31,465 nt of DNA, taken from positions 1-31,465 of the IMG/VR virus record IMGVR_UViG_3300010362_000070. The stretch is one strand, 5' to 3'. The DNA comes from a virus (taxonomy: Duplodnaviria > Caudoviricetes). Position numbers and translations under genes: made by a program. The notes below the pieces were generated by a model, which saw nothing but the letters and a program-made list of their open reading frames with translations, searched no databases and was not told the origin of the DNA. Below are positions 4,073-31,465 of this stretch, one piece after another (the first letter of the stretch is position 1; every line of letters begins with the position of its first letter).

Positions 4073-4468
4073 ATGACTGACATCCACGTCGACCCCGGGT
4101 CCAGCTTCGTGACGGTGACCGCGATCCCCCCCGCGTTGACGGTGATCGAAGTGTTCGCGCCCGATCAGTACAACGACCTCGGGGATGGCGACTACACGCT
4201 CACCGCCGGCCACTACGCGCAGGGTCTGACCCGCGATGGGCAGCCACCCATCGATCCCGCCCTCATCAATGAGGAGCATCCCGATAACCGCTCGCAGCCC
4301 GACGACGTCATGTCGATGCAACCCGATGGCTCGTGGCAGACGCGGCCGAAAGGCGCGAACGGCCCGTACGAACGCTGCAAGAAAACGGCGGCGGGCGCGG
4401 TGTATCGACCCGTCGTGCCAGGCGTCGCGCGCCTCGTGGGTGTAGCGACGGAGGTGCCGAACCAGTGA
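4073..4468 (+). CDS. Hypothetical protein with one fascin-like repeat motif
   Basis: GAGG RBS, GC3-rich codons, stop overlaps next start (TGATG). Motif VMSMQPDGSWQTRP...GPYE. Confidence 0.7.
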   Translation: MTDIHVDPGSSFVTVTAIPPALTVIEVFAPDQYNDLGDGDYTLTAGHYAQGLTRDGQPPIDPALINEEHPDNRSQPDDVMSMQPDGSWQTRPKGANGPYERCKKTAAGAVYRPVVPGVARLVGVATEVPNQ

Positions 4469-6777: not shown

Positions 6778-8136
6778 ATGAGCATTGAGGCGGCAAAGGC
6801 CTGCATCCGCCACGCCCAGGCCGACCTGAATCAAGCGCTCGTCGAGCTCGATGCCGTCACGCCACCAGAACCGCCAGCCGCCATCGTCAGCACGCCGGCC
6901 GAATTCGACGAGGCGCTGCTGGCAGCCGTTCCCGGCGATGTCATCGTGTGTGCGGTCTCGCTGGTCTATCCGTCGGTGCTGACAATCCGAACGGCCGGCA
7001 TTCAGATCATCTCGGAACACAGCGGCACGACGCGGATCACCGACACGGAGTCGGCCCCAGCGTTCGGCGACAAGATCATTCTCGAGGCCGCTGATGTCCG
7101 ACTGAGCGGTCTGCAGATCTCGCACGGGAAATGGACCGACATTCTGCAGCTCGCCGGCGCGAATCCGATCATCGACCGCTGCCGCATTCTCGGCGACACG
7201 ACGACTGGTGCGCGCCGCGGAATCGCCGCCAACGCCGCGAACGTCACGATCACGCGCTGCCATATCGATCTCTGTTTTGGTCCCTATCCTGGCGATGATA
7301 CGCAGGCGATCTGTGCCTGGAAATCACTCGGCCCGATCCTCATCGAGGATTGTTATCTCTGCGGCGGCAGCGAGACGGTGATGTTTGGCGGGTCGGATCC
7401 GCCGAGTTCCGAGTACGTGCCCGCCGACATCACCATCCGTCTCAACACGATCACCAAGCGCGCCGCGTGGCAGCAGCAAGCGGTCGGCGTCAAAAACATT
7501 TTCGAGTTGAAGAATGCGAAGCGCGTCCTGATTGAAAACAACACATTCAGTTATTCGTGGGGCGGCCACGGTCAGGACGGATTCGCACTGGTGCTGACGC
7601 CGCGGAATCAGAGTGGCACGGCGCCCTATTCGACCGTCGAGGATGTCGAAATCAGACAGAACCGCTTTTCGTGTTCAGCGGGCGCGATCAGTTTCTTGGG
7701 TCACGATAACAACTATCCGAGCCAGCGCCTAGCCCGCGTAAACATCCATCACAACGTGTTCGAGGATCTCTCGCCCAGTAAGTACACCGGCACGAACAAG
7801 ATGCTCCAGATTCAAGCTGGCCCGATGCAACTGACTATCGACAGCAATGAGTTCTATGGTGCCGGTCTGAGCTCACAGGTGTATTTCAGCGGTTCGCCTC
7901 AGTGCGACCAATTGACCGTGACCAACAATAAGTGGCCGCACACGACGTACGGAATTTTCGGATCGGGTTCGTCTACAGGGACCGACCCAGCGACGGGCTT
8001 GCCGAAGGCTTGGGTGCAATACGTCGCGTCGGGTCAGTTGGCCAATAACACGGAATGGCCGGCGACGCGATCTACCGTGAGGCGCTTCTACGAATGGATC
8101 CTTCGCTGCGTGGCATCGTTCGGTTTCGCGAGGTGA
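6778..8136 (+). CDS. Right-handed parallel beta-helix (pectin-lyase-like) protein, putative polysaccharide depolymerase
   Basis: Repeated beta-helix coils (NVTITRCHI, ILIEDCYL, ITIRLNTI, VLIENNTF, VEIRQNRF, VNIHHNVF); VKNIFELKNA and GQDGFAL motifs. Confidence 0.8.
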   Translation: MSIEAAKACIRHAQADLNQALVELDAVTPPEPPAAIVSTPAEFDEALLAAVPGDVIVCAVSLVYPSVLTIRTAGIQIISEHSGTTRITDTESAPAFGDKIILEAADVRLSGLQISHGKWTDILQLAGANPIIDRCRILGDTTTGARRGIAANAANVTITRCHIDLCFGPYPGDDTQAICAWKSLGPILIEDCYLCGGSETVMFGGSDPPSSEYVPADITIRLNTITKRAAWQQQAVGVKNIFELKNAKRVLIENNTFSYSWGGHGQDGFALVLTPRNQSGTAPYSTVEDVEIRQNRFSCSAGAISFLGHDNNYPSQRLARVNIHHNVFEDLSPSKYTGTNKMLQIQAGPMQLTIDSNEFYGAGLSSQVYFSGSPQCDQLTVTNNKWPHTTYGIFGSGSSTGTDPATGLPKAWVQYVASGQLANNTEWPATRSTVRRFYEWILRCVASFGFAR

Positions 8137-8139
8137 GGC

Positions 8140-9384
8140 ATGAAAATCACGCTGCAGTACTTCGGCCGGTACGTCAGTGCGGAACAGGGCGGCGGCATCG
8201 ATACGCGCGAGCTCGGGGCGCCCATCGCGATGCACGCTGATCGCAGTGAAGCCGGTCCGTGGGAAACGTTCGACCTGCAAGATCTCGGCGAGAACAAGTA
8301 CGCGCTGCGGACCTGTGATGGCTATTACGTCACCGCCGAGAATGGCGGCGGATCGAGTATTCGCACCAATGAGAAGGCAGCTGGCGTTTGGGAAACCTTC
8401 ACGCTCATTAACGGCGTCTTTCTCTGCTGGGATGGTCTTCACGCGCTCGGCGTCATCAACGCGACACTTGACATCACGGCGCAAACGAGTCCGCCGCGCT
8501 TCACGATCACGTCGCTCGAGCCGCCGACGCCGCCATTCCCAGAGCTCGACGTCTGGAAGGGCTCGTTTTGTATTCCCGGCGCGATGGCCGGTGCCCCGTA
8601 TGGCGATGGGCAACGCATCTGGACGCCCGCGTACGGCTGCTACGACGACACCTGGCGCGCGACTATGCGGAAGGCCTACCGCGCTCGAAGCTATACGCAT
8701 TTCGTCTACAACGCGGCCGGCTTGCCGTACGCGAACGATTACCCAGAGCTCACCGACGATCCCGATCGCGTCGCGCGCGATCTCGCCGAGCTCGTCGCCG
8801 ATGGATTGATTCCCGTCGTCTGTGCGACCGACGATCGGGAACCCGACCGCGTGCTCGAGAGTGTTGGCCGCTGCAGCGATCTGATTCCGATTGTGTTTCC
8901 GTGCTGGGAACAAAACGGCCCGCTCGGTAACGACACGAATCGACAAAAGACGCTCATTTGCAACGTGCGCGACGCGGTGCCGGCCGCGCAATGCTGGTTA
9001 CACTTCACGCCGGGACACGGCGCGATCGGGATTCCCGAAGACGAGTGCTGGTTCTGGTGTCAGGAGCAGGGCACGATCGGATTGCTGGCGCAAGGCGGAA
9101 ACAAGATCAGCAATCTCGATCCGGTTTACGAGGGCAAGGGCCTTGAGACAACCGCCGTACGCCTCGCCGGCCTGGTCGGCTATGTCGTGCCCGAGTGGGA
9201 CGGTGGCTCGGTTCCACCATCGTGGGCGGGCTTGCATCAGCGCACGGTGAAGTTCGAGTGGGGGATTTTTGAAAGCTACCATTCGCGTGTCACCGAAGCG
9301 GATCTCTGCGCGTTTACCGATGCGTTCATGCCGTATTGTCCGCACGTCTCCGGCTTCTGCGACGGTGGCACGGTGCACGTATGA
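8140..9384 (+). CDS. Fascin-like (beta-trefoil) domain + putative TIM-barrel glycoside hydrolase
   Basis: Two repeats YVSAEQGGG...GPWETF and YVTAENGGG...GVWETF; Pro linker; alpha/beta domain with WEQN, WLHF and KFE motifs. GAGG RBS. Confidence 0.65.
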   Translation: MKITLQYFGRYVSAEQGGGIDTRELGAPIAMHADRSEAGPWETFDLQDLGENKYALRTCDGYYVTAENGGGSSIRTNEKAAGVWETFTLINGVFLCWDGLHALGVINATLDITAQTSPPRFTITSLEPPTPPFPELDVWKGSFCIPGAMAGAPYGDGQRIWTPAYGCYDDTWRATMRKAYRARSYTHFVYNAAGLPYANDYPELTDDPDRVARDLAELVADGLIPVVCATDDREPDRVLESVGRCSDLIPIVFPCWEQNGPLGNDTNRQKTLICNVRDAVPAAQCWLHFTPGHGAIGIPEDECWFWCQEQGTIGLLAQGGNKISNLDPVYEGKGLETTAVRLAGLVGYVVPEWDGGSVPPSWAGLHQRTVKFEWGIFESYHSRVTEADLCAFTDAFMPYCPHVSGFCDGGTVHV

Positions 9385-9851: not shown

Positions 9852-9912
9852 TGGGTATCCCCGAGGCGATATGCCGAATAAGTATAACTTGACGATTAGC
9901 AAGGCCTGAACC

Positions 9913-24545: not shown

Positions 24546-27500
24546 ATGTTCGGGACCGCGGCGTTCGGACAGCTCGGGTTCGGCCAGGTCGTCGGCCAGG
24601 TCTTCACGCCGCTGGCGGTGACTGCGGCGCTCAGTGTCGCCCCACAGGCCGCCCTCACAACCCCAAGTCCTCTGGCCGCCGTCTCGGGCTGGACCCTCGC
24701 GACCGACGCAATCCTCACGACCGGCACGAATCGGTTCGAAGCCAGTGCCGGGATCAGTCTCGGGACGCAGGCGCCGCTCGCGCTCCGCGCCAATCTCGCG
24801 ACGCATCCGACGATCACGATTGGCGTCGGCGAACCGATCTTCGATCCCGGCATCTTCGACGGGTTCACGCTCTTCGATACGCGCCGGCGGTCATCGACGC
24901 AGCTACTCGTCTCCGGGCCATTCGTCGCGGCGCCGACGCTGACCGTCGGCGTGGCGGCCCCGAACCTGGCCGTCGGGTCGATTGCGTTCACGGCCGACAC
25001 GACCCTCCTGCTGGGCACGACGGCGACGCTGCGGTCGCTGCCCGCCACATTCGCCGTGACGGTGACGATCCCGATCGGCGTCGTCGGCAACCTTGTCAAG
25101 ACCGGCTACGGCTTCTCGAGCGTGATGATCGCGTTCAACGGCGCGATCACGCAGGACGTGCGGCGCGGTTCGATCAGCATCAGCGACGAATTGAACGAAG
25201 CCCCGAATACCTGCGACTTCATCGTCGACGGGTCACCGCCGTCGATCGGTACCGATGTCCGCATCGGCCTGCGGGATCTGCAGGCGGCCAATCTGCTGTT
25301 CGGCGGGGAAGTCTTGAAAGTGACGGAGACCTTTTCCGGGCGGCCGTCGCATCCGGCCTGGCAAGTGAACTGCCGCGACTACACGTTCCTGCTGAATCGG
25401 CGCAAGGTCTGGGCGAAGTACACGCAGACCTCGGCGACCTCGATCGCACTCGAGCTGATGCAGAGCTATACGACCGGCTTCTCGACGACCGGGATCGTCG
25501 GCGGCTTGCCGGCTATCGATGTCGAGTTCGACGGCATCGATGTCCTGGGTGCGTTGTCCAAGATCGCGACGCTCATTGGCGGCTACTGTGACGTCACGGC
25601 CGCGAAGGTGGTCCGGCTGTTCGTCACGAATACAGATCCGCCGCTGACGCTGACCGACACGGATCCGCTGTTCAAGATGAATCCGTCGCTCGGCCTGACG
25701 CGTGATCTTTCGCAGGTCCGTACGCGGGTCGCGGTGAAAGGCGTCGGCAAGTCGGTCGCCGGCAACTCGGGGATGCGGATCGGAGCGGGTGCCTCGCTGC
25801 TGCCGCTCGAGGATGTCGAACCCTTTGGCGTCGATGCGGGTCTGGCCATCACGGACGACCAACAGATTCTCAATTACAGTGCGACGACGCCGGGCGGGGC
25901 GGTCGGCAAAGTCGGCAACACGGCCTCCCCGATTAACACGATGCTCGCGCAGCTCGCGCCGAGTGTGGTCGGCGGCTTGATTGGCACTTACTACTGGGCC
26001 GTGGCCTTCGCGAACGCCGCCGGCGAGACGCCGATCAGTCTGCCATCGAATCAACTCGCGTGTCCTGACCGGACGTCACCGACATCGACTATCGGGATCG
26101 GCACGACTGGCGCCGTCGGGCCGCTCGTCGGCCGCTATGGGTACCGGGTCGCGAACGTGACCTCGCGCGGGCAGACGCTCCTCGGACCAGAGACCGCACG
26201 GGTCGCCAATGCCCTGGCACGGCCGTTTGCGCCGAGCATCAGTACCGCGTCGCCGCCGGGGCCGTTTCTCGGCGGCAACAACTGGGCCTATGCGTCATCG
26301 TTCGTCACGCCCTACGGCGAGACGATGCCGAGCGCGCAAACGATCTGGACGCCCACGCCCATCGTGCTCGCACAGGTCACGTCGGCCTCGGGAGATGCGT
26401 TCGGCGGGTTGCTCGATGGTCCGTACTACGTCGGCGTATCGAATGTGACGGCCCTTGGCGAGATCGGTTTATACACGACCTACATCGGGACGAACTTCCA
26501 TACGACCGGACCGGCACCACCGGGGATTATGCGCTGGGATACCGGCGGTCGAATCGAAACCGGTTACAACTACTTTTACGCGTGTTCCTCCTATCACGAA
26601 ACCTGGGGAGAAACACCGCTCAGTCTGTACCAAAGTTTTTACAATCAGTCGGGCGTCGGCGTGAAGTTTACGGTCAGATTGCCGGCGCCGCTGCCAAATC
26701 AAACGGGGATGCGCTTGTACCGGCGCGCGTCGCCCGTCAGCGATCAATCCATTAGCTCGGCGTGGCAACTCGTCGGCGAGTTCTGGGGAAGCCAAGACAT
26801 CGTCGACAACTATAACCAGAGCGAGCTCGGCGACCAGTATCCCAAGCAGGCGCGCGCGGGCGGGCGCGTGTGGTACACGCTCAGTTCCTCGGCCGAGGCC
26901 GGCGTCGTCGCGCGCCGGATCTACCGCACGAAGTCCAACGGCGCGGAATATTTTCTCGTCGGGGAAATTCAAAACAACTTCAACGGCGCACAGTTTCTCG
27001 ACCTCGCGCCCGACTCCGCGCTGACGCAGCGATCATCCGCCGTCGCGACGACCGCGAAGTCATCATTCGTCTCGGCCGCGAGCGGACCGGCCGGTGTGAC
27101 ATCGCGGCGCATCTATCGCACCAAGGTCAATAGTTCGCAACTCTTCCTCGTCGGCGAGATTAAAGACAACTCGTCGTCGGGCATGATCGATATGGTAAAG
27201 GACGACGGGTTGACGGTCGGGGCACCGGGCACTCAGAGCGGCATCGGCGACACACACATTCTCACGTCAATTCAACCAGGACCACCGGGCACGCTCGCGC
27301 GCAATCTCTACCGCACGAAAGCGAACGGCTCGGAATTCTTTCTGCTTGGTCGCATCAGCGACAACACGAGTACCAGCTTCGTCGATAACGTGCCCGATGC
27401 GAACCTCGGTGAGGGGCAACCGCTGGTCAATACGGCGGGGGCGTCGGCGGCGCAGTTGATCGGTATCCCGATCGGCGGCAGCGGCGTCACCAAGCGCGTC

Positions 27501-28508
27501 TTGTACAGGACGAATGGCACTGGCAATGTCGCGACCTTCAAGTACCTCGCGACCATTGACAACAACACCGACACGACCTTCATCGATGATAAACCCGACA
27601 GCGATCTCGGCCGCGCGCCTTCGGAAGCGTCGAACCTCGGCGCCCTGCCTGGTGATACCTCGCTCGCACTCGACAACGTGAACGGCTTCCCGACGCTCGG
27701 CTGGGTCCGCGCCGAGAATCAGTACATCGCGTACAATGGCATCAGCTATACGGGCGGCGGCCGCGGCACCCTGAACAACATTGCGGCTCTGCAACGGATT
27801 CTGTCGATCACGCGCAGCGGCAACATTGCGACGGCGATTACGCAATTTACGCATGGGTTCGTCGTGGACGATGTCGTGACGGTCCTCGGCGCGAATCAGA
27901 CCGAATACAACGGCGTGCGAAAACTCCTGTCGGCCTCGGGCACCGTCTTTAGCTACAAGGTCGAAGGCTTTCCGGCGTCGCCAGCGACGGGCACGATTAG
28001 TGTCGGTGTCAATGGCGCGATCGTGGCCGCCATTCAGGGCGGATCCATCGTGCAGGCTGTGCCCATGCTGACCGGCGTGTCGGGTCTGATTCGACCGATT
28101 GCGATCGGTGCGAGCGTCTCACTCTGGGTCGTGCGCTCGTCGGCGACCGGCATCACGCAGCTCCAGACGCTCGAGGGCGGCGACGGCATTCGCGAGTACA
28201 GCATCACCGACAGCTCACTGGAGTCCATTGCGGCGTGTCAGCAGCGCGGCGATGCCGACCTGGCGCTATTCGCGTTCGCGCAGATAACCCTGACCTATCG
28301 CACGCAGGACACGACGACGCGCAGTGGGCGGACCGTGCACGTGACGCTGCCGCCACCCTACACGCTGACCGGCGACTTTCTGATTCAGTCGGTGCGGATC
28401 AGCAATATCGATCAGGAACTGCGGACGCTCCCGTTTTTCGACGTGACGCTCTCGAGCACGCGGTTCTCGCTCGAGGACGTGATTCGCCATGTCATCCTGA
28501 GCCGCTGA
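24546..28508 (+). CDS. Large tail-tip/baseplate hub protein with inserted repeated beta-sandwich modules
   Basis: Hub-like segments (ISISDELN...CDF; LFGGEV; CRDY..LL.R; RTRV.V.G; DG.RE..I.D) enclose five Y.Y....GE(T) and five R..YR repeats. Confidence 0.82.
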   Translation: MFGTAAFGQLGFGQVVGQVFTPLAVTAALSVAPQAALTTPSPLAAVSGWTLATDAILTTGTNRFEASAGISLGTQAPLALRANLATHPTITIGVGEPIFDPGIFDGFTLFDTRRRSSTQLLVSGPFVAAPTLTVGVAAPNLAVGSIAFTADTTLLLGTTATLRSLPATFAVTVTIPIGVVGNLVKTGYGFSSVMIAFNGAITQDVRRGSISISDELNEAPNTCDFIVDGSPPSIGTDVRIGLRDLQAANLLFGGEVLKVTETFSGRPSHPAWQVNCRDYTFLLNRRKVWAKYTQTSATSIALELMQSYTTGFSTTGIVGGLPAIDVEFDGIDVLGALSKIATLIGGYCDVTAAKVVRLFVTNTDPPLTLTDTDPLFKMNPSLGLTRDLSQVRTRVAVKGVGKSVAGNSGMRIGAGASLLPLEDVEPFGVDAGLAITDDQQILNYSATTPGGAVGKVGNTASPINTMLAQLAPSVVGGLIGTYYWAVAFANAAGETPISLPSNQLACPDRTSPTSTIGIGTTGAVGPLVGRYGYRVANVTSRGQTLLGPETARVANALARPFAPSISTASPPGPFLGGNNWAYASSFVTPYGETMPSAQTIWTPTPIVLAQVTSASGDAFGGLLDGPYYVGVSNVTALGEIGLYTTYIGTNFHTTGPAPPGIMRWDTGGRIETGYNYFYACSSYHETWGETPLSLYQSFYNQSGVGVKFTVRLPAPLPNQTGMRLYRRASPVSDQSISSAWQLVGEFWGSQDIVDNYNQSELGDQYPKQARAGGRVWYTLSSSAEAGVVARRIYRTKSNGAEYFLVGEIQNNFNGAQFLDLAPDSALTQRSSAVATTAKSSFVSAASGPAGVTSRRIYRTKVNSSQLFLVGEIKDNSSSGMIDMVKDDGLTVGAPGTQSGIGDTHILTSIQPGPPGTLARNLYRTKANGSEFFLLGRISDNTSTSFVDNVPDANLGEGQPLVNTAGASAAQLIGIPIGGSGVTKRVLYRTNGTGNVATFKYLATIDNNTDTTFIDDKPDSDLGRAPSEASNLGALPGDTSLALDNVNGFPTLGWVRAENQYIAYNGISYTGGGRGTLNNIAALQRILSITRSGNIATAITQFTHGFVVDDVVTVLGANQTEYNGVRKLLSASGTVFSYKVEGFPASPATGTISVGVNGAIVAAIQGGSIVQAVPMLTGVSGLIRPIAIGASVSLWVVRSSATGITQLQTLEGGDGIREYSITDSSLESIAACQQRGDADLALFAFAQITLTYRTQDTTTRSGRTVHVTLPPPYTLTGDFLIQSVRISNIDQELRTLPFFDVTLSSTRFSLEDVIRHVILSR

Positions 28509-28608: not shown

Positions 28609-29160
28609 TCAGGGATTGGATCCGCCAGTGGGCCCCGTGGCCCCCGTGCCACCACCGGCAGGCGGCGGCGTCGTGCCGGGCGGCGGCGTCGGAAGCCGTG
28701 GCGGCGGCATCGGCGTGGGTTGGGCCGTGCACGGCTGGCCGTACGCTCGCAGGTTCACGGCTGAGGAGAGCGATCCGGCGGTGAGCACTACCACGACATC
28801 GGTATCGACCGCGCTGCTCGGCAGCGTGAGCAGCACCGCACTCTGACCGCCGCCATCCGTCCGCGCCGACATCATCCCGAGATCGGCGAGCGATCCGTAC
28901 GATGTGCCCCACTGCACGGGCAGATCGGGCACGCCGCGCATGACGCCGTCGCTGGCCAGCCCCATCGCGATGACCTTGACTTGCGTCGCGCCGCCGGCAC
29001 AGACGAACAGCGGTTCATAGAACGCGCGGAGCTCGCTCGGGTGCGACGCCGGCACGACGTTGGCCGGATACGGCGTCCCGACCGGCGTCGGCCCGAGGAT
29101 CGGGCCGGTCGTACACGCGGACATGAAGCCGGTCAGGATGATCGCACATAGTCTTCTCAT
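28609..29160 (-). CDS. Lipoprotein with Ig-like domain and Pro-rich tail
   Basis: Signal MRRLCAIILTGF with lipobox-like MSAC; V.W.TS.GSL...ARTDGGGQ..V.L resembles Big_1 domains. Confidence 0.7.
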   Translation of the reverse strand: MRRLCAIILTGFMSACTTGPILGPTPVGTPYPANVVPASHPSELRAFYEPLFVCAGGATQVKVIAMGLASDGVMRGVPDLPVQWGTSYGSLADLGMMSARTDGGGQSAVLLTLPSSAVDTDVVVVLTAGSLSSAVNLRAYGQPCTAQPTPMPPPRLPTPPPGTTPPPAGGGTGATGPTGGSNP

Positions 29161-29227: not shown

Positions 29228-29598
29228 CGATCGGGAACAGGACGGGAATGGAAGTGCCAAAAAGCCCCCGATCGTCGCAGATAGCCGCCGATGGTCCCGG
29301 CGCGGTGATCGGTTGAAATCGGCAGTTTTGTTCAGGAATTCGCGGATTTGGGTGGTGGACGGCAGGAGGCTCGAACTCCCGACCTCCGCGTTGCGAAGAC
29401 ACCTTTGAGGCACCTTTTCCTTAAGGTTTTTTGCGTTTGCTGGGGCGATTGGGAACAGCGTGGGAATGAAATGAGGCCAGTAGCGCCCGAATGTCGCGCA
29501 CACGCCACGCATTGACACGCGGCGAAATCTTGACGGGTTGCGGATACCGACCTTCTGCCACACCACGCCGCCAGCTTGTTTTCCCGATTGGGAACAGC
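29228..29598. repeat. Direct repeats flanking att core (integrase arm-type site candidates)
   Basis: CGATCGGGAACAG-gac-GGGAATG (29228), CGATTGGGAACAG-cgt-GGGAATG (29446), CGATTGGGAACAGC (29585). Confidence 0.65.
29353..29397 (-). other. attP: attP core: 3' half of tRNA-Ala(CGC)
   Basis: Minus strand TTCGCAA CGCGG AGGTC GGGAG TTCGAGC CTCCT GCCGTCC A CCA: anticodon loop (CGC), T-arm, acceptor 3' strand with U70, discriminator A and CCA. No 5' half. Confidence 0.9.
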
Positions 29599-29681
29599 CG
29601 AAGGATGAGCTGTTCTCGCACGAAGGCTTCATTCTCGAGCGGTAATGCCGAGGGGACGTCCTGTTTCGATCGTGGCGGCAT
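29421..29681 (-). CDS. AlpA-family excisionase / recombination directionality factor
   Basis: FVR...I...FPIGKTSW.RGV.EGRYP.PVK.S.RV.AW...DI pattern; TGATG coupling to the integrase stop. Confidence 0.85.
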   Translation of the reverse strand: MPPRSKQDVPSALPLENEAFVREQLILRLFPIGKTSWRRGVAEGRYPQPVKISPRVNAWRVRDIRALLASFHSHAVPNRPSKRKKP

Positions 29682-30781
29682 CAAGCGCGCGCCTTCCGCG
29701 GCTTCCGCGGCGACTGGCTACCGAGCGCGGCGACCATGTCCTCGCGGCTGACCTCGCTATAAATCTCGAGCAGGACGTTCGGCTTTTTCCAATTCCCTTG
29801 CTGCTGGACGATCGGCAGCGCCACATTCTTCTTGACCAGCAGATCCGTCGCGCCCGAGCGGCGCGTGCCCCAATGGAAGGTGATCCCGTTCTTCTTTTTC
29901 CCGTAGTCCAAATTCGCCTTCCGGCAGAGATATTCGAGCCGTTGCCGGACCGAGCCGGTCCAATCGCGCGGCTCGACGGCTTTCCTGAATTTGGGAAATA
30001 GGTATTTGCTATCGTTCCCGGCCAGCGCATCGACGGCGCCGGCGGCGCGCGGCGAGAGCACCATCTCGTACGGCGTGCCGCCTTTCGGATCGCGCACATA
30101 GAGCAAACGCCCGTCCCGGTCGGTGTGCTGCAAGTCGAGCAAATCCCCGAGCCTGGCCAGGCCGTCGCGCCCGAGCACCAGGATCGCCGTATCCTGTGCG
30201 TCCTCGCAGACGGCGAGCAACTTCTCGAACTCCTCCGCGCTGACGTAGCGGCGCCGCGGCGGCACGATGCGCAACCGCGGCATCCCGACCAGCGGCGACA
30301 CCTGGAGGTACTTCGGCACGGCGTCGCGCAACATGGCCTTGAGCAGATCGACTTCGCGGTTGATCGTGACCGCTGCGGCCGGCGGCGAGTCCGTCCGGCG
30401 CACGGTGTGATACGCCTTCACGCGGTCGCGGTCGATCGCCGTCAGCAGATCGTCGCCGAAGAACGCGACGAGTTGCTTGAGGATCTCGAGTTCGCGGCGG
30501 GCGCCGGCGCGATGCGCGATCGTGTCGGTCTTGTACGGCTCGGCGTACTTTGCGAAGCGAATCGCCGGCCGCGCGGTCGGCAACTGATAGAGACGCGCCG
30601 CCAGTTCGTTCATGCGCTGGTGGTAGCGATCGAGGGCGAGCTGCTTACTCTCGCGGCGCTGGACCGTCGTGCGGCCGACCTTGATATCAGTCTTTTCCTT
30701 TTGTTTGGTCGTTTCGAGAAACATCCACCAATACGGCGATTCGAGCCTGCCGTTTCGCCGAAGACGCATGTAGATGCCCAT
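29681..30781 (-). CDS. int: Tyrosine integrase
   Basis: TINRE...LK core-binding motif; catalytic R (ARLGDLL), K (DPKGG), H-x3-R (FHWGTRR), W (GNW), Y (EIY). Likely start MGIY at 30781 (track start 30883). Confidence 0.92.
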   Translation of the reverse strand: MGIYMRLRRNGRLESPYWWMFLETTKQKEKTDIKVGRTTVQRRESKQLALDRYHQRMNELAARLYQLPTARPAIRFAKYAEPYKTDTIAHRAGARRELEILKQLVAFFGDDLLTAIDRDRVKAYHTVRRTDSPPAAAVTINREVDLLKAMLRDAVPKYLQVSPLVGMPRLRIVPPRRRYVSAEEFEKLLAVCEDAQDTAILVLGRDGLARLGDLLDLQHTDRDGRLLYVRDPKGGTPYEMVLSPRAAGAVDALAGNDSKYLFPKFRKAVEPRDWTGSVRQRLEYLCRKANLDYGKKKNGITFHWGTRRSGATDLLVKKNVALPIVQQQGNWKKPNVLLEIYSEVSREDMVAALGSQSPRKPRKARA

Positions 30782-30971
30782 CAGCGAGCTCGGTGTACCT
30801 GAGCTGCTTTCACGATCTGTCGGCGGTATGCGGAATCGGTATTCGTGCGATTGCCCGAACCATAAAATCTTGTCTCGCTGCACAGAAACAACTGATAAAC
30901 CATTGTCATACCGTCATACTCGCAGTAGCGTGTCGCCTTTGTTTTCGTCTCGCATTAAAGGCAGGTGAGAC

Positions 30972-31184
30972 ATGTTCACGTGGCGGCGATTTAGCGTGTG
31001 GATTTCTCCCCAGGATTACGACACTATCGAGCAATATCTGCGACTCCCCGACGACATTCGTGCCGCTTGTCGGGATGTCATCGCTTTTTCGGCGGCAAGG
31101 GCGGCGGCACGTACCACGATTCCAGCAACTGACGCAAGGCCGTCCGAGCTTGCTCTGGCAGGGCGCGATAGCGTTCCAGAATGA
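30972..31184 (+). CDS. Small protein resembling the repressor C-terminal domain (anti-repressor candidate)
   Basis: AGGTGAG RBS-like sequence. Residues 13-37 align without gaps to repressor residues 80-104. Confidence 0.6.
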   Translation: MFTWRRFSVWISPQDYDTIEQYLRLPDDIRAACRDVIAFSAARAAARTTIPATDARPSELALAGRDSVPE

Positions 31185-31434
31185 ATTGCTCGTCGGGATT
31201 CTGCGGGAGATCAAGGAGCGCATGCAGGCCGTGCCCGAACAACGCCGCCATCCGCTGTAAGGTTTCGAGGTCGGCATCGTTCTCGCCACTGAGATAGCGC
31301 GACGCCCAGGGTTGCGTTTTCCCGAGCCGGTTGGCCAATTCGTCCTGGCTCATTCCGGTCATCTTCATCCACTGGCGGATCCGATCGCGCGCAAGTTTAT
31401 CCAGCACGATCGTTGAGTGTAGGGCGGTCGGCAT
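31078..31434 (-). CDS. XRE/Cro-CI family immunity repressor without S24 peptidase domain
   Basis: GMSQDELANRLGKTQPWASRYLSGE....LETLQRMA..FG HTH; upstream of int; only 118 aa. Confidence 0.88.
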   Translation of the reverse strand: MPTALHSTIVLDKLARDRIRQWMKMTGMSQDELANRLGKTQPWASRYLSGENDADLETLQRMAALFGHGLHALLDLPQNPDEQFILERYRALPEQARTALRQLLESWYVPPPLPPKKR

Positions 31435-31446
31435 GTCGTGCCCGTG

Positions 31447-31465
31447 AGTATACGCGATAAGTATA
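31447..31465 (-). promoter_or_regulatory. Candidate -10 elements for repressor promoter
   Basis: Two TATACT hexamers on the minus strand (AGTATA at 31447 and 31460); any -35 for the distal one lies outside the window. Confidence 0.35.

Follow-up and report, generated by a model that had tools for sequence, protein, structure and literature searches.

A small gene convergent on a phage repressor resembles the repressor's own C-terminal hairpin and may encode a SinI-like antirepressor in phages that likely infect soil Acidobacteria

How a temperate phage whose repressor is short and non-cleavable leaves lysogeny is the question raised by the right end of the linear virus record IMGVR_UViG_3300010362_000070 (31,465 bases; estimated completeness, 98%), which was analyzed as a whole and is hereafter called the window. 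Its + strand carries terminase, capsid-protease, portal, and tail-related genes (Pfam/PHROG), and the right end of its − strand carries an integrase and an XRE regulator (Table 1). As a first-pass annotation had remarked, this repressor lacks the Peptidase S24 domain of lambda CI-type repressors (it matches Pfam HTH_3), and a search for the domain found none anywhere in its own genome or in the five records covered (0/5, own genome included). The same annotation had proposed that a 70-residue open reading frame (ORF), convergent on the repressor gene, encodes a mimic of the repressor's C-terminal domain and thereby an antirepressor.

Table 1. Features of the lysogeny region of the window (positions counted from the first letter of the window).
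Feature	Position	Strand	Remarks
XRE repressor, 118 aa	31078..31434	-	Pfam HTH_3, E 2.7e-9; PHROG regulator and repressor families
Small convergent gene, 70 aa	30972..31184	+	Antisense to the repressor 3′ end; overlap 107 nt
Shine-Dalgarno-like motif of the small gene	30958..30968	+	SD-like 4-mer
Promoter-like site TTGTCA-17 nt-TAGCGT	30903..30931	+	40 nt before the ATG of the small gene
Tyrosine integrase	29681..30781	-	phrog_1 integrase, E 3e-30; transcribed away from the small gene
attP-like core, 3′ part of tRNA-Ala(CGC), downstream of the integrase	29353..29395	-	43-nt exact matches
Perfect operator-like palindrome TATAC-N7-GTATA	31449..31465	.	Just upstream of the repressor; contig end
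Operator-like palindrome (TATRC-N7-GYATA type)	30827..30843	.	Between integrase start and small-gene promoter; third-best site in the window

The attP-like core is matched exactly at no fewer than 122 genome loci; among the 80 matches listed, most belong to Acidobacteriota and many to genomes named Vicinamibacterales, and ARAGORN called a tRNA-Ala(cgc) at six of the eight core loci tested. Because of these matches, we infer that the window derives from a temperate phage of Vicinamibacterales, soil Acidobacteria being the likely host. The start of the integrase was placed according to homologues that begin with MGIY or MGVY, the longest ORF starting at 30883.

The repressor is laid out as an N-terminal HTH, a predicted two-helix C-terminal hairpin (residues 80–91 and 94–107), and a basic tail (AlphaFold2 model; mean pLDDT, 79.8), and no Pfam family matched its C-terminus. 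Residues ~12–41 of the small protein correspond to a stand-alone copy of this hairpin, with predicted helices 13–23 and 27–48 that are in register with those of the repressor and a pLDDT of 94–98 over residues 11–40, followed beyond about residue 50 by a low-confidence and variable tail. The coordinates, lengths, and overlap recorded in the first-pass annotation proved to be exact, as did its ungapped alignment of ORF residues 13–37 with repressor residues 80–104 (8/25 identical). The ORF and the repressor align locally with a score of 45, which 21 of 20,000 shuffled versions of the ORF attained; among 706 six-frame chunks of the window compared with the repressor C-terminus, only the ORF and the repressor itself did so. 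BLASTP gave an E-value of 0.002. These scores, together with the ranks obtained across loci with a repressor-only profile (see below), lead us to reject chance similarity. At the DNA level, the two segments share 37 of 75 nt, with 14, 18, and 5 matches at codon positions 1, 2, and 3, respectively, and are not joined by an inverted repeat; because of this distribution and the lack of a repeat, the likeness resides at the protein level, in agreement with the earlier claim.

Successive scans with repressor alignments yielded 14 metagenome loci, 6 viral loci, and lastly 18 viral loci, from which those identical in the region or representing the same contig a second time were left out (L010–L012, L018, L020, L021, L023–L027, L030, L032, and L038). 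The remaining 24 distinct loci, window included, have repressors 38–100% identical. The antisense ORF, whose absence or interruption in relatives the first-pass annotation had named as an argument against its proposal, is conserved in all 24 at an equivalent position and without interruption, sharing 62–164 nt with the repressor 3′ end; one of the loci is cut by the contig end. A scoring matrix was derived from repressor C-termini alone and used to score all 26-residue windows of the six reading frames. The antisense ORF came out on top in 12 of 15 loci (rank 89 in the truncated L005, 2 in L008, and 6 in L013) and, with the same matrix, in eight of nine held-out distinct loci (rank 16 of 7,056 in L022). 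In 18 of 21 loci, the end of the motif window falls exactly 7 nt inside the repressor stop; reverse-complementing the repressor stop codon gives the codon junction where the small protein has a conserved hydrophobic position. Two loci are irregular: the repressor match of L014 (L014:4001–4337) does not lie in one frame, with an apparent frameshift near 4104, and L035 (L035:3001–3378) has a longer repressor tail and an overlap phase unlike that of the other loci.

Beyond these loci, single-sequence scans of viral contigs with the repressor and the small protein returned little or nothing, as did the repressor alignment against genome contigs, GenBank phages, and PDB sequences; nor was a match to the alignment found in 5 genomes of the host order or in a sample of 401, in each of which only 11 candidates were scored. 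A profile search of 1.84 billion representatives yielded four rows, of which two are true relatives and two are repeat proteins rejected as spurious, and a word-index search with 23 sequences yielded two proteins that were already in the set. The small protein matched no Pfam or PHROG family and had no Atlas match at 0.9 or above, and no description of the repressor/small-gene family was found in the literature searched, most subscription journals lying outside it.

Several coding signals were found for the small gene. In 23/23 loci, no stop interrupts its motif frame over the 30 codons beyond the repressor stop, as compared with 9–16 loci for the other five frames, a count that is partly circular because the frame was chosen by the motif. 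The value of pN was below that of pS in nine of nine pairs, by a clear margin for close relatives and by a narrow one for some distant pairs, and between the window and L002 all five differing sites within the 33 codons outside the overlap are third positions. Of 11 amino-acid differences from P0003, nine lie in the overlap tail, where silent changes of the repressor alter the small protein; because the differences concentrate there, the tail looks like a passenger of the repressor coding sequence. The ribosome-binding-site-like sequence reported for the ORF was confirmed as an SD-like motif, and such a 4-mer is found ahead of the small-gene start at 16 of 21 loci, the background being 0.17. 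Likewise, a promoter-like pattern (TTGnnn-17/18-TAnnnT) occurs upstream in 16/21 loci, with 0.9 expected and none on the opposite strand, although this count is optimistic because the pattern was chosen by eye from the same loci; the site in the window scores below the threshold of a generic promoter scan. Judged by these coding signals, the small gene is a real gene.

The relation between the two proteins was then considered across the family. In hhalign, the alignment of 23 small proteins matched that of 26 repressors with a probability of 88% (E, 2.8e-6); the 36 aligned columns all fall within the C-terminal domain, and the hydrophobic patterns of small protein and hairpin agree column by column (rho, 0.74). 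Each small protein resembles the hairpin of its own repressor more than those of other repressors, with scores of 25.5 and 18.9 in 21 loci, and of 25.0 and 18.7 (p = 0.0013) in the 19 loci that remain without two close relatives. As had been claimed, the matching segment lies almost wholly outside the overlap, and the cognate excess persists on the 22 outside codons (p = 0.0009), so that an artefact of reading the overlap is rejected; the p-values of these tests are optimistic because the loci are related. A composition control reached at most 4.5, as compared with an observed excess of 5.9. There is no cognate excess at third codon positions (p = 0.52), and four-fold sites match in 32 of 85 cognate and 451 of 1,264 non-cognate comparisons, by which recent DNA duplication or gene conversion is rejected. 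An excess in protein with none at third positions is consistent with selection that preserves the match of the protein to its cognate repressor, and not with recent copying of DNA. Overall, small–small similarity does not follow hairpin–hairpin similarity (Mantel rho, 0.10; p = 0.18), and no charge complementarity between small protein and hairpin was detected (rho, 0.31; p = 0.17). Divergence is much greater among the small proteins than among the hairpins (6.0 vs 10.1 identities of 25), and weak mimics exist, with 3/25 identities in L008 and L022. Fold comparison added generic rows: Foldseek gave no match at E ≤ 0.001, the best VIA-align hits (Z, 4.3) were generic hairpins only, and other fold searches returned only generic HTH or hairpin rows. 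As read from these alignments, the small gene reproduces the C-terminal hairpin of the repressor but not its DNA-binding domain, and it keeps its place next to the repressor throughout the family.

The genes surrounding the pair are arranged in the order cro-like gene, operator-like palindrome, repressor, mimic, and often then integrase. All 17 loci examined upstream of the repressor have a divergent cro-like HTH gene there, 15 of them with a PHROG regulator match; that of the window would lie beyond the contig end and is seen in L002 and relatives. The interval between the cro-like gene and the repressor contains a conserved TTGACA promoter facing the former and a palindrome of the form TATRC-N7-GYATA, with a second, weaker copy often ~32 nt from the first, and the palindrome at the contig end of the window has its counterpart in this interval in relatives. 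Upstream of the small gene, the best operator-like site is significant (p ≤ 0.05) in 17 of 22 loci. It is situated ~36–89 nt upstream of the small-gene −35 (ten loci) rather than over it, so that repression of the small gene is not straightforward, and its role may lie on the integrase side. Among 18 neighbours compared with PHROG, the next long gene proved to be an integrase in 11; one more locus has a weak Pfam integrase match, and the other upstream neighbours have no assigned family. L002 encodes a repressor protein 100% identical to that of the window, and its DNA is near-identical up to the operator-like site at 30827–30843, beyond which it switches to an unrelated integrase (window 30781–30850 vs L002:1830–1900); on this comparison, the module exchange point adjoins the palindrome. 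Further operator-like palindromes are located far from the switch, at 9870–9886 and 8692–8708. The former has the highest score in the window and lies just upstream of an HNH gene (9913) that precedes the terminase, which suggests direct control of the late region.

Other routes of repressor inactivation were surveyed. The ImmA/IrrE-type trans-cleavage systems inactivate repressors that do not self-cleave, and an M78 peptidase of this type was found neither in the own genome (0/1) nor in the related records (0/5), these being phage records only. The palindrome is not a host SOS box, as it was found in 0 of 33 lexA and 0 of 31 recA upstream regions and showed no excess over control in five host genomes. 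The lexA and recA upstream regions, which belong to the inferred host order (lexA loci L166–L170 and L177–L204; recA loci L172–L174 and L205–L232), display a candidate SOS box of their own: nearly all of the 33 lexA regions contain TTCGC and, 11 nt further on, TTTGC, and in 27 of the 31 recA regions TCGC abuts the −35, often with a second, inverted GCGAAAG copy. This candidate, derived from the lexA and recA regions, is significant ahead of the small gene in only one of 22 loci and shows no enrichment there. It differs from four LexA boxes of other phyla, which had one match in 23 loci and were likewise rejected.

Among known systems, the closest is AimX–AimC of the extended arbitrium Bacillus phages, a phage precedent of the same gene geometry that the first-pass annotation, which cited SinI, did not mention. 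There, a gene for AimX (29–80 aa) is convergent on, and sometimes overlaps, that of the short HTH repressor AimC, and the AimX–AimC heterodimer blocks oligomerisation and DNA binding, as shown by two-hybrid, SEC-MALS, and EMSA (10.1101/2025.11.23.689978); its authors liken AimX to SinI, consider antisense effects inconsequential, and report very few close aimC–aimL homologues outside arbitrium loci (10.1101/2025.11.23.689978). Both loci have a small HTH repressor with a divergent cro-like gene (that of the window seen via L002) and a small ORF convergent on or overlapping the repressor 3′ end, as in 24/24 loci here. In arbitrium, aimR is found upstream of aimX, whereas the small gene described here has its own promoter-like site and often a divergent integrase; because it is without AimR (PF22871 in 0/5 records, four at least 90% complete, own genome included), the locus is not an arbitrium system. 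Further differences concern the host (inferred to be Acidobacteriota, as opposed to Bacillus), the overlap register, which is fixed here, and the origin of the small protein, a detectable sequence paralogue of the hairpin, whereas the main text on AimX states no duplication of, or sequence similarity to, AimC.

With the SinI/SlrA–SinR systems of Bacillus subtilis, the pair has in common an XRE repressor with a C-terminal helical hook and a stand-alone hook paralogue, which is the antagonist in the former (PMC3917956). The sinI gene is chromosomal, co-directional with and upstream of sinR, and controls biofilm genes (PMC3917956), whereas the present gene belongs to a phage and is convergent. 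Foldseek rows of the repressor model to SinR are weak and driven by the HTH (3qq6, E 5.6e-3; 1b0n, E 1e-2), and none of 23 small proteins matched Pfam SinI at E up to 1, nor any Pfam family below E 0.048. The CI protein of TP901-1 is also a non-S24 phage repressor with a two-helix dimerisation domain (PMC4941734). The match of the small-protein model to that domain (6fxa) is weak (Z, 3.3; rmsd, 1.7; 35/35 residues) and indicates only a common helical hairpin. The antirepressor Mor of TP901-1 binds the CI N-terminal domain and is the Cro-like protein itself, not a separate hairpin copy. The Gifsy antirepressors, as proposed here, inactivate repressors that do not self-cleave, but their genes form a separate LexA-repressed unit, whereas the present gene is interlocked with its repressor (PMC3121763).

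Based on this comparative evidence, we favor, with a probability of about two in three, the reading that the small protein is a SinI-like dominant-negative antirepressor of the adjacent repressor. The hairpin is assumed to be the dimerisation hook of the repressor, by analogy to SinR and TP901-1 CI, and the repressor to bind the TATRC-N7-GYATA palindromes around the cro-like promoter. By pairing with the hairpin, the small protein would block dimerisation of the repressor, and the resulting 1:1 heterodimer would be unable to hold the operator, whereupon the cro-like lytic promoter would fire and the phage pass from dormancy to lysis. The palindrome upstream of the small gene and the integrase may close a loop of mutual inhibition. 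More tentatively, and with the odds somewhat against it, the whole may be a self-contained cassette, without arbitrium or an identifiable SOS box, in which the antirepressor is an inverted copy of the hairpin, locked to the repressor stop, co-evolving with it, and placed under the repressor's operator. An additional layer of antisense or transcriptional interference, which the first-pass annotation had envisaged, gained no support here, and such effects were inconsequential in the closest tested system, AimX–AimC (10.1101/2025.11.23.689978).

It is less likely, at perhaps a small share of the probability, that the small protein binds the hairpin to tune the repressor, by capping oligomers, shifting operator preference, or buffering the threshold of lysogeny, with no part in triggering induction. 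A conserved promoter-like site of its own with no SOS-type box upstream would fit steady expression; the pair of operator-like sites, ~32 nt from each other, that many loci have at the cro-like promoter hints at higher-order binding open to capping; and SlrR–SinR exemplifies the redirection of a repressor by a hook-sharing partner (PMC3917956). However, a small protein devoid of a DNA-binding domain cannot add specificity, and the small hook-binding partners that have been tested, SinI, SlrA, and AimX, are inhibitors (PMC3917956; 10.1101/2025.11.23.689978). We regard it as improbable that the main target lies elsewhere, in the repressors of co-resident related prophages acted on in trans, or in a hairpin-attacking host protease for which the small protein would be a decoy. 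Similarity to non-cognate hairpins is also high (18.7–18.9), and a weak fold row relates the small protein to the C-terminal domain of CapH, a peptidase target (Z, 3.0; rmsd, 3.9; 35 aligned); trans-acting antirepressors are known from the Gifsy phages (PMC3121763). Against these points stand the cognate excess in protein and the fixed point of linkage to the adjacent repressor.

Slightly more improbable still is an effect at the RNA level, in which convergent transcription would lower the repressor by antisense pairing or polymerase collision and the peptide would be secondary. Such an effect would agree with the convergent overlap being kept in every locus and with the conserved promoter-like site pointing into the repressor, yet selection acts on the protein outside the overlap, co-variation with the repressor is found only in protein, and in AimX–AimC recoding of the overlap had no effect whereas a stop codon abolished the response (10.1101/2025.11.23.689978). 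The idea of a functionless relic of an old inverted duplication of the repressor 3′ end, to which the strong divergence of the small proteins and the free change of the overlap tail might be attributed, is largely refuted by the open frame in 23/23 loci, the start codon with its SD-like motif, the promoter-like motif, and the third-position bias.

Thus, the gene pair is real and conserved, and its likely mechanism, under the favored antirepressor reading, is one already known from Bacillus; its novelty lies in the host group, in being independent of arbitrium, in a clear paralogy at sequence level accompanied by cognate co-variation, and in the fixed overlap register. For an abundant soil phylum of which little has been cultured, the pair provides a concrete candidate explanation of the way in which phages whose repressors are short and non-cleavable could exit lysogeny, and the AimX/SinI mechanism would reach beyond Bacillota and beyond arbitrium. 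If the self-contained cassette holds true, it would represent a two-gene mutual-inhibition toggle, a strict paralogous phage SinI, in Acidobacteriota phages. The ~20 divergent cognate pairs constitute a natural panel for the question of how a mimic keeps its specificity for a homodimer interface, and could supply orthogonal repressor–antirepressor parts. The locus also offers a search rule for a class of genes that callers often overlook, namely to scan the antisense strand at a repressor stop with a profile of the repressor's own C-terminus.

Several other genes of the window are worth recording. Between the integrase and the attP-like core, an 87-aa ORF (29421–29684, − strand) with a weak AlpA match (E, 0.064) is possibly a recombination directionality factor. 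Proline-rich proteins with a lipoprotein-like N-terminus, as recognized by eye, are encoded near the lysogeny module in the window (28609–29160, − strand) and in L036 (L036:3563–4177, + strand); nothing in Pfam matched either of them, and they are possible superinfection-exclusion genes. The tail region encodes a protein of 1,320 aa (24546–28508, + strand) with repeated internal segments and no Pfam match, an apparent relative of which adjoins the switch of L029. Upstream of the terminase and outside the tail module (6778–9384, + strand), a beta-helix protein of 452 aa, with a weak match to a tail-spike PHROG, is encoded together with a DUF7910 protein of 414 aa.
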